From IMG/VR virus record IMGVR_UViG_2534681835_000017, positions 1 through 5,021 of that record: 5,021 nt of DNA; one strand, 5' to 3'. Positions 2,896-4,200 of the stretch are shown in pieces. Position 1 is the first letter of the stretch; each line of letters opens with the position of its first letter. This DNA is from a virus (Duplodnaviria > Heunggongvirae > Uroviricota > Caudoviricetes). Below the pieces are notes generated by a model. It saw nothing but the letters and a program-made list of their open reading frames with translations, was not told the origin of the DNA and made no database searches. The position numbers were made by a program, and so were the translations under genes.

Positions 2896-4200
2896 ATGGC
2901 AGTAAAGATTTCAGGTGTGCTGAAAGACGGCACAGGAAAACCGGTAGAGAACTGCACCATTCAACTGAAAGCCAGACGTAACAGCGCCACGGTGGTGGTG
3001 AACACGGTGGCCTCTGAAAATCCGGATGAAGCCGGTCGTTACAGCATGGACGTTGAGTACGGTCAGTACAGCGTCATTCTGTTGGTGGAAGGATTCCCGC
3101 CGTCACATGCCGGGACCATCACCGTGTATGAAGATTCTCAACCGGGGACGCTGAATGATTTTCTCGGTGCCATGTCGGAGGATGACGTCCGTCCGGAGGC
3201 ACTGCGTCGTTTTGAACTGATGGTGGAAGAAGCAGTGCGTCACGCTGAGGAGGCGAAGAAGAATGCCGGAGAGGCGGAGACATCAGCGAGGAATGCCGGC
3301 ATATCAGCCAGTCAGGCAGAAGAGAACGCTGCAAATGCTGACACTTCAGCAGGGGATGCATCGGAGTCAGCCCGGCAGGCGGCAGAAAGTGCAGCCGCTG
3401 CAAAGCAGTCAGAGGAGGCGTCCTCGTCCTCGGCCTCTGCGGCCGCTCAAAAAGCCAGTGAGTCATCACAAAGTGCAGCAGAAGCTGAATTGTCAAGAAA
3501 GACGGCAGAAAGTGCAGCCGGTAATGCAGCCAGGGATGCAACGACCGCAACAGAAAAAGCCCGGGAGTCAGCAGAAAGCGCACAGTCAGCGGAACAAAGC
3601 AGGATAGCGGCGGAAGAAGCCGTAAACCGAATCCCCACCGTGGTGGGGCCTCCCGGGCCAAAGGGGGAACCGGGGCCCGCGGGTCCTCAGGGGCCGAAGG
3701 GAGATAAAGGAGAGCGTGGAGACACCGGCCCTGTCGGGGCAACCGGTGAACGGGGACCGAGAGGAGATACAGGTCCGGCAGGTCCGCAGGGGCCGAAAGG
3801 TGACAGGGGAGAGCGGGGAGAGACCGGTCTGACGGGAAATGCAGGTCCACAGGGTCCAAAGGGAGATACCGGTGCGGCAGGCCCACAGGGACCGAAAGGA
3901 GAAACAGGTGCGGCTGGCCCGGTGGGGGCAACCGGACCTCAGGGACCGAAGGGCGACCCGGGGGAGACGCAAATACGGTTCCGTCTGGGGCCGGGAAACA
4001 TTATTGAGACAAACAGCCATGGCTGGTTCCCGGATACAGATGGCGCACTCATCACCGGACTGACCTTTCTTGACCCCAAAGATACCACACGGGTTCAGGG
4101 TTTTTTTCAGCATTTGCAGGTCAGGTTTGGTGACGGGGCGTGGCAGGATGTTAAGGGGCTGGATGAAGTGGGCAGTGATACAGGCAGAACAGGAGAATGA
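2896..4200 (+). CDS. stf: Side tail fibre protein with collagen-like domain (lambda Stf-like N-terminus; resembles prophage collagen-like fibre proteins)
   Basis: 434-aa ORF from ATG 2896; the ORF track starts at in-frame GTG 2890, but [17 protein letters not shown].. begins exactly like lambda Stf as recalled. Residues to about 115 are colinear with the lambda Stf N-terminal domain. Then an Ala/Ser/Glu-rich low-complexity segment (about 3241-3630), 36 uninterrupted G-X-Y triplets (3646-3969), and a 77-aa non-repetitive C-terminal domain (3970-4197). Stop TGA at 4198-4200. Confidence 0.85.
3646..3969 (+). repeat. Collagen-like G-X-Y coding repeat (36 triplets) inside stf, with internal nucleotide-level repeats
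   Basis: Translation [27 protein letters not shown]...[12 protein letters not shown] has Gly at every third position without interruption. GPQGPKG recurs five times. A 36-nt tandem duplication sits at 3844-3879 / 3880-3915 ([12 protein letters not shown] / [12 protein letters not shown]), and imperfect 47-nt direct repeats start near 3682 and 3781. Confidence 0.9.

Follow-up and report, generated by a model that had tools for sequence, protein, structure and literature searches.

The stretch of viral DNA analysed here, hereafter the window, comprises 5,021 nucleotides (nt) of a member of the Caudoviricetes (IMG/VR record IMGVR_UViG_2534681835_000017, positions 1 to 5,021) and contains at 2896–4200, stop codon included, a gene that we read as encoding a side tail fibre of 434 amino acids (aa). 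It is very likely (probability about 0.93) that this protein is a structurally intact EPclA-type side tail fibre of the lambda-like, long-tailed, Stx-phage-related prophages of enterohaemorrhagic Escherichia coli (EHEC). Four architectures of the "EHEC prophage collagen-like protein" were defined by Ghosh et al. (2012; PMC3368898), and EPclA is the one built as PfN-PCoil-Col-PfC, with one collagen block and a PCoil of typically 116 aa. Since the Pfam domain order and the 116-aa PCoil of the window protein equal this published definition, the protein belongs to a type that is already known and experimentally characterised, and its architecture is not new. An earlier reading of the same DNA (the original prediction) had taken the fibre for a member or variant of the collagen-like fibres found in prophages of pathogenic E. 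coli; membership stands, and the suggestion of a variant is dropped, the whole domain order being that of published EPclA.

The open reading frame (ORF) is intact from an ATG at 2896 to a TGA at 4198–4200 on the plus strand, which carries all features described below other than two antisense ORFs, according to both the ORF list and the translation. An alternative GTG start is found two codons upstream, but the ATG is where lambda Stf and all homologues begin in alignment. The protein is matched in Pfam by PF08400, PF01391 and PF06820, its top PHROG matches (phrog_366 and phrog_3279) are each labelled 'tail fiber protein', and no Pf2 repeat was found in it, PF03406 giving no match in the Pfam scan. 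Every feature of EPclA that can be examined at the sequence level is thus found, namely PF08400, a heptad PCoil of ~116 aa, a single collagen block, PF06820 and the stf position. Two antisense ORFs (3119–3931 and 3586–4362) and an out-of-frame ORF (3263–3607) had no Pfam match and were set aside as arising incidentally from a coding sequence that is repetitive and GC-rich.

The N-terminal PfN domain (aa 1–134; 2896–3297) is defined by PF08400 (phage_tail_N), which covers aa 1–133 (profile positions 1–133 of 134, E=3.3e-68), and by an alignment of 128 aa with lambda orf-401 (the N-terminal portion of Stf), in which 82% of the residues are identical; in that pairwise comparison similarity ends at aa 128 and none was found beyond. 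A PDB sequence search additionally matched aa 1–93 to the collar domain of Ur-lambda Stf (9e7m chain Ta, E=4e-52). These 93 residues correspond to the collar or attachment beta-sandwich, and the final ~30 PfN residues start the helical rod. The lambda-Stf-like N-terminus of the original prediction is well founded on all three counts. In Ur-lambda, 12 Stf collar domains ring the gpV/gpM junction, giving four trimeric fibres, and each collar is followed by a flexible linker and then by a long Ala/Ser-rich coiled coil at residues 102–393 (PMC12617516). By homology, EPclA-type fibres would dock on the tail through a collar of the same kind.

The PCoil segment (aa 135–250; 3298–3645), recognised by its composition, its periodicity and the EPclA length, is exactly 116 aa long, from the end of PfN at ~aa 134 to the start of collagen at aa 251. 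Ala, Ser and Glu account for 31%, 16% and 16% of aa 111–250, the published composition of the EPclA PCoil being 32/19/13% (Ghosh et al., 2012; PMC3368898). Over aa 101–245, Ala, Ala plus Ser, and hydrophobic residues recur with a sharp period of 3.5 residues, which was not attained in any of 500 shuffles; such a period marks a heptad coiled coil, which the segment is predicted to form. An Ala/Ser/Glu-rich coil had been proposed, and rightly; the accompanying idea that it replaces a distal part of Stf fails, because lambda Stf has its own Ala/Ser-rich proximal coiled coil (residues 102–393). The coil of the window fibre is instead a shorter counterpart of part of Stf, the differences between the two proteins being confined to the region that follows it. 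The PCoil is shortened in some homologues, where collagen starts at aa 188, 210 or 224 and not at aa 251.

The collagen block (aa 251–358; 3646–3969) consists in translation of 36 consecutive Gly-X-Y triplets without interruption, precisely as had been reported, and is matched by PF01391 (Collagen; E=8e-18). Given the Gly content of the remaining protein (7.7%), a run of this kind would arise by chance with a probability of ~1e-40. Position X is occupied by Pro in 17 of the 36 triplets and next by Glu and Asp, position Y by Thr, Lys, Ala, Gln or Arg, and 23% of the residues of the block are charged. Collagen extends by ~0.286 nm per residue, so that the 108 residues would form a shaft of about 31 nm.

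Beyond the last triplet follow 76 residues, which the original prediction had counted as 77, had been unable to assign and had presumed to carry receptor specificity. A domain search identifies them: PF06820 (Phage_fiber_C, "PfC") matches aa 360–423 (3973–4164) end to end (profile positions 1–64 of 64, E=3.9e-35, 120.5 bits with a cut-off of 25), so that the predicted C-terminal trimerisation knob is followed by a tail of 11 aa. A confident match to a known tip domain is the very result that the original prediction had named as refuting it, and the claim of a novel tip falls with it. That the fibre has a new architecture, in which the C-terminal 76–77 aa are an undescribed receptor-binding tip, is therefore extremely improbable. 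PfC received its name in 2012, when it was also demonstrated to act as a trimerisation module (PMC3368898), and among the 120 homologue clusters listed, 75 have the same tip, with a mean identity of ~95%; what speaks for novelty, and weakly, is that PfC has neither a solved structure nor a confident AlphaFold2 model. Among these 75 PfC-terminated homologues, the mean pairwise identity is 95% for PfC vs 96% for the virion-attachment domain, with only about seven commonly polymorphic positions in PfC, a degree of conservation that looks unlike the usual diversifying host-range tip. PfC is about as conserved as the attachment domain and its proven role is trimerisation; the guess that the tip sets receptor specificity is neither borne out nor overturned, and its ligand is probably conserved. 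At fibre aa 415 (~4138–4143), a GDGPWQ motif reads GDGAWQ in the window and in E. coli O111:H8 strain 8E, the Pro being found in all 75 PfC-terminated clusters.

A PDB sequence search found no solved relative of PfC, its matches being collagens, collagen-like proteins and peptides, and the Ur-lambda collar. A profile built from the PfC alignment and run against 1.84 billion representative proteins retrieved only 83 matches, nearly all of them fragments of one family from Escherichia, E. albertii and Citrobacter rodentium; because these are mostly same-family fragments, a deeper PfC alignment is not attainable. Four long proteins matched in several stretches (P0267, P0273, P0301 and P0307) were set aside, as they look like repeat-rich proteins matched by composition. 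A distant relative from this search, P0276 (565 aa), has a collagen block preceded on its N-terminal side by four PfC-like units in tandem, an arrangement opposite to that of EPclA, which suggests that fibre contexts other than this one also make use of PfC-like modules.

The biochemistry of this fibre type, that is the trimer, the coiled coil, the triple helix and trimerisation through PfC, was established by others on a protein ~95% identical to the 434-aa allele. That protein, EPclA ECs2717 of E. coli O157:H7 Sakai, shares with the window fibre the domain order, the 116-aa PCoil, the single uninterrupted collagen block and the C-terminal residues, and its gene occupies the same slot after J and lom (PMC3368898). 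The window allele differs from it in having 36 and not 37 triplets, in a few substitutions (among them the Pro to Ala change in GDG[P/A]WQ, as in 8E) and in residing in a decayed prophage. The primers used by Ghosh et al. for cloning EPclA, PfN-PCoil and PfC fit the window with 0–3 mismatches: the EPclA forward primer has 1 mismatch at 2896 and the reverse primer matches exactly, ending at 4197, the PfN-PCoil reverse primer is exact at 3645, and the PfC reverse primer is exact and ends at 4164. Recombinant EPclA is trimeric by analytical ultracentrifugation and by size-exclusion chromatography with multi-angle laser light scattering (SEC-MALLS). PfN-PCoil forms a trimeric alpha-helical unit, as judged by circular dichroism (CD) and SEC-MALLS, PfN by itself is monomeric, and recombinant PfC by itself is trimeric. 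Col-PfC gives a collagen CD spectrum with a melting temperature of 42 °C in the version with 111 aa of collagen, the helical part melting at ~52 °C, and electron microscopy (EM) of EPclA shows a dumbbell with a hinged stalk, ~50–62 nm long (Ghosh et al., 2012; PMC3368898). Given the ~95% identity, the 434-aa allele is expected to form the same trimer with a collagen triple helix and a coiled coil.

These properties lead to a proposal for how the fibre is built and what it does. Collagen helices zip up from a C-terminal nucleus (PMC11923368), and for this reason the PfC trimer most likely nucleates and registers the collagen triple helix from the C-terminus. Three chains would make one fibre, whose N-terminal beta-sandwiches (aa 1–93) would dock as a collar at the tail tube/tip junction in the fashion of lambda Stf. 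The collar would be followed by a trimeric Ala/Ser-rich coiled coil (~aa 101–250, ~20 nm), a hinge, the 36-triplet collagen helix and finally the PfC knob, which would be the sole part of the fibre positioned for cell contact. The fibre is probably, like Stf, a long flexible first-contact tether that speeds adsorption and not a trigger of DNA release; a 2026 preprint on phi24B describes the shaft of the related gp61 as too flexible for passing on a trigger signal (10.64898/2026.04.10.717836).

Several points weigh against this reading of the fibre. The closely related fibres of lambda_2B8 reportedly do not recognise BamA, and the same preprint lists the function of phi24B-type fibres as an open question (10.64898/2026.04.10.717836). 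The exact 434-aa sequence is absent from a collection of 15 billion proteins. For the C-terminal 81 aa, an AlphaFold2 model of the monomer, computed from an alignment of 24 sequences, reached a mean predicted local distance difference test score (pLDDT) of 50 and a predicted template modelling score (pTM) of 0.34, and because this model is uninformative we only infer the fold of PfC and its part as folding nucleus. AlphaFold likewise failed on the equivalent C-terminal region of gp61 in the phi24B preprint (10.64898/2026.04.10.717836).

The DNA that encodes the collagen block is itself repetitive. Tandem Repeats Finder reported a 36-nt unit at 3841–3920 (2.2 copies, 84% matches, score 111), and a repeat finder detected longer imperfect direct repeats (74-nt units with 99-nt spacing and 65–74% identity) as well as eight copies of a 32-nt unit. 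Both the 36-nt duplication and the longer imperfect repeats had been noticed in the original prediction, which expected the length of the region to differ between strains. This expectation is confirmed by the homologues. Aligned to its nearest relatives, the 434-aa allele is the common 437-aa form less one triplet (36 vs 37 triplets; 108 vs 111 aa), and the one-triplet (9-nt) gap falls after aa 327, at ~nt 3877, inside the 36-nt tandem array. Triplets were counted in the 120 listed homologue clusters mentioned above: the 75 that end in a PfC tail have 4, 5, 8, 14–16, 19–21, 25–26, 32–33 or 35–37 triplets, and the overall range is 4–38, the maximum of 38 being reached in EPclD-type relatives with a peptidase-S74 end. 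No interrupted Gly-X-Y run was seen among the listed homologues. Slippage or recombination at the collagen-coding repeats may shift the length of the shaft by whole triplets. The variation as such had already been published, the tables of Ghosh et al. (2012; PMC3368898) giving EPclA collagen lengths of 63–144 aa that vary in whole triplets.

Comparison with other fibres places the window protein among its relatives. Lambda Stf, as seen in Ur-lambda, has a homologous N-terminal collar followed by an Ala/Ser-rich trimeric coiled coil, and its gene holds the same slot after J and lom. Beyond the coil, lambda Stf goes on to a hinge, a distal gp37-like domain and an OmpC-binding tip, and it needs the Tfa chaperone; in the window fibre, by contrast, the distal half is a collagen helix with a PfC knob, and the Tfa slot holds an 89-aa PfC paralogue. 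The distal gp37-like region and the downstream Tfa that mark a fibre of the lambda Stf type are accordingly missing from the window, where Pfam identifies the downstream ORF as the PfC paralogue. EPclB, the lateral fibre of short-tailed Stx2 phages (Sp5 ORF67/ECs1228, 933W L0121 and phi24B gp61), has in common with the window fibre the PCoil, the collagen shaft and a PfC tip that is closely related; it is also trailed by the same 89-aa PfC ORF (ORF68). It differs in having two collagen blocks split by a Pf2 repeat, in its length of ~645 aa and in its place on a podovirus tail adaptor. Fibres of the EPclD type, found in Shigella and E. coli, have the same PfN, 116-aa PCoil and collagen start, with ~93% identity over the first 60%, but end in a peptidase S74 intramolecular-chaperone domain (PF13884) and not in PfC.

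These relationships also bear on a very different explanation, in which the protein would be a bacterial surface collagen-like adhesin, similar to Scl or Lcl, that travels with the prophage as cargo and has the animal host as its target, and not a part of a virion. The collagen block does resemble the NCBIfam models of SclA, SclB and Lcl, and the gene is intact in a prophage that can apparently no longer make particles. The scores, however, are 78, 68 and 65 bits vs cut-offs of 325, 400 and 500 and cover only Gly-X-Y or low-complexity regions, the NCBIfam scan of the fibre yielding nothing but sub-threshold adhesin matches and low-complexity matches to TolA. Moreover, the N-terminus is a tail-collar domain, neither a signal peptide nor a wall anchor is present, the gene lies in the stf slot after J and lom, and the relative EPclB has been seen at phage tail ends by immuno-EM (PMC5155283). 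An adhesin is thus very improbable, if marginally less so than a novel tip.

Fibres of this type are widespread. Some or all of the fibre gene and the downstream ORF is matched in 4642 of 5426 complete E. coli genomes, and 693 of the 5426 hold a near-full-length copy of the two-gene unit; genomes with any match have a median of 2 and a maximum of 18 matching places. At least 80% of the fibre protein is present in 141 phage records, mainly of Stx1a-, Stx2a- and Stx2c-converting phages, and the full-length (437-aa) fibres of Stx phages are 95–97% identical to the 434-aa allele. Many homologue copies are frameshifted or truncated. In Stx2a_WGPS4 the gene order is J (host-specificity), Lom (outer membrane), the fibre, an 89-aa ORF and cargo genes including NleG. 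In EHEC genomes, EPclA-type fibres rank with the phage genes that are repeated most. As a discovery, the window carries little weight, since the family, the domain names, the biophysics, the length polymorphism and the small ORF are all in the literature (PMC3368898; PMC5155283), and its main use is that of a clear-cut negative, in which a quick Pfam scan disposes of the claim of a novel tip. The remaining interest is family-wide and not specific to this locus: it concerns what PfC binds, what the free paralogue does and what the variation of the shaft between 4 and 38 triplets means. Answers on the ligand and on the shaft would bear on the spread of prophages that carry Stx and effectors.

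The free-standing PfC paralogue of 89 aa (4202–4471) directly follows the fibre gene. Its ATG at 4202 lies one base past the stop codon of the fibre gene and is preceded at a distance of 6 nt by a GGAG, and its product is matched by PF06820 (E=3.7e-36) and, over its full length, by phrog_576. It is 34% identical to the PfC tip of the fibre itself, and the exact 89-aa protein is present on 49 contigs. The ORF sits where lambda has the gene for the Tfa chaperone. Its counterpart in Sp5, ORF68, is non-essential and was suggested to be a reservoir for fibre variation by Mondal et al. (2016; PMC5155283), who found no frameshift signal for it. One may imagine that the translationally coupled 89-aa protein joins the PfC trimer of the fibre as a cap or adaptor and so forms the actual receptor-binding tip, or that it swaps with the fibre PfC by recombination, the two-gene cassette being the functional unit. 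We regard this as unlikely: deletion of ORF68 in Sp5 is tolerated and recombinant EPclA trimerises without the small protein. Rare database entries (P0011 and P0013, 494 aa, and P0052) have the fibre and the small PfC ORF fused. A single-base change at TGACATG, through mutation or sequencing error, could explain the 494-aa fusions. A programmed frameshift joining the two ORFs was considered and rejected, since fusion needs a 1-nt change at TGACATG and no slippery site was seen there.

The two-gene unit is flanked by terminator-like structures. Between lom and the fibre gene, motif matching, a hairpin scan and folding revealed at 2849–2885 an exact match (at 2849) to TGTTATGAC, a putative promoter according to Ghosh et al. 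(PMC3368898), together with a hairpin at 2858–2879 followed by a T-run (fold energy -18.6 kcal/mol, z=-2.9). This hairpin and T-run come directly after the TGTTATGAC motif and end only 10 nt before the fibre start codon. A second terminator-like hairpin with a T-run, at 4489–4512, closes the unit (-16.5 kcal/mol, z=-3.7, a stability that none of 200 shuffles attained); it was missed by a simple terminator scan and detected by folding.

The surroundings are those of a decayed prophage. Upstream of the fibre, Pfam recognises Phage_lysozyme, Phage_Tail_Tip, Ig_GpJ_C and Ail_Lom. The lysozyme gene (758–1222), which is truncated, is fused at ~1210 to the last third of the tail-tip gene J (1210–2229), and lom (2232–2831) follows, so that this context spans 1210–2831. 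Matches to prophages with intact J start only at 1210. Over its full length the window shares 99.4% identity with E. coli O111:H8 strain 8E, the annotation of which lists a 'lysozyme, missing C-terminus' and a 'tail tip protein, missing N-terminus' at the same junction. Because of the lysozyme-J fusion, the intact-J matches from 1210 and the 8E annotation, we conclude that the whole head and tail morphogenesis region of the prophage, from lysozyme to the 3' end of J, has been deleted. An IS1 element lies ~170 nt past the terminator of the fibre unit, with its terminal repeat at ~4678 and insA from 4732, and occupies 4678–5021 of the window; in strain 8E, IS1 is annotated at the same place, and the prophage element lies beside ompW, yciE and trpA. 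Intact relatives have cargo or effector genes, such as nleG, at the point where the window has IS1.

Judged by its gene content, the prophage would be unable to build its own virion, leaving the fibre gene intact but orphaned. A fibre gene in this position would therefore be useful at most in trans or as recombination stock, and it may serve in either way for the many lambdoid prophages that reside in the same cell. In the strain that carries the decayed prophage the gene is presumably in current disuse. A stronger form of this view holds that the gene is a silent relic, which has stayed intact only because little time has passed since the deletion and the insertion of IS1, and which is used neither in trans nor as stock; it concerns the present role of the gene and not its identity as an EPclA-type fibre. 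This is plausible, falling somewhat short of an even chance. The loss of the morphogenesis genes, the terminator-like hairpin directly upstream of the fibre gene and the many frameshifted or truncated homologue copies are consistent with it, whereas both ORFs of the unit are uninterrupted, the small one is identical to a protein found on 49 contigs, and the several related places per matching genome (median 2, up to 18) give scope for recombination and complementation.

A locus beside ydfJ in E. coli O111:H8 strain 8B (L004) was examined as a possible allele of the window and rejected, being a different, independently decayed prophage with a 371-aa fibre and hence a paralogue. It consists of a J fragment, lom, the 371-aa fibre (an annotated length, which matches in size P0047/P0054 with 15 triplets) and a small PfC ORF, and its deletion junction differs from that of the window in that an antirepressor is fused to J. 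In these prophages, decay seems to spare the fibre end repeatedly. Finally, the window contains a 186-aa ORF (161–721), flanked by the holin-side ORF and by the gene for lysozyme, for which Pfam gave no match. It matches phrog_1085, of unknown function, and its counterpart in strain 8E is annotated as a hypothetical protein.

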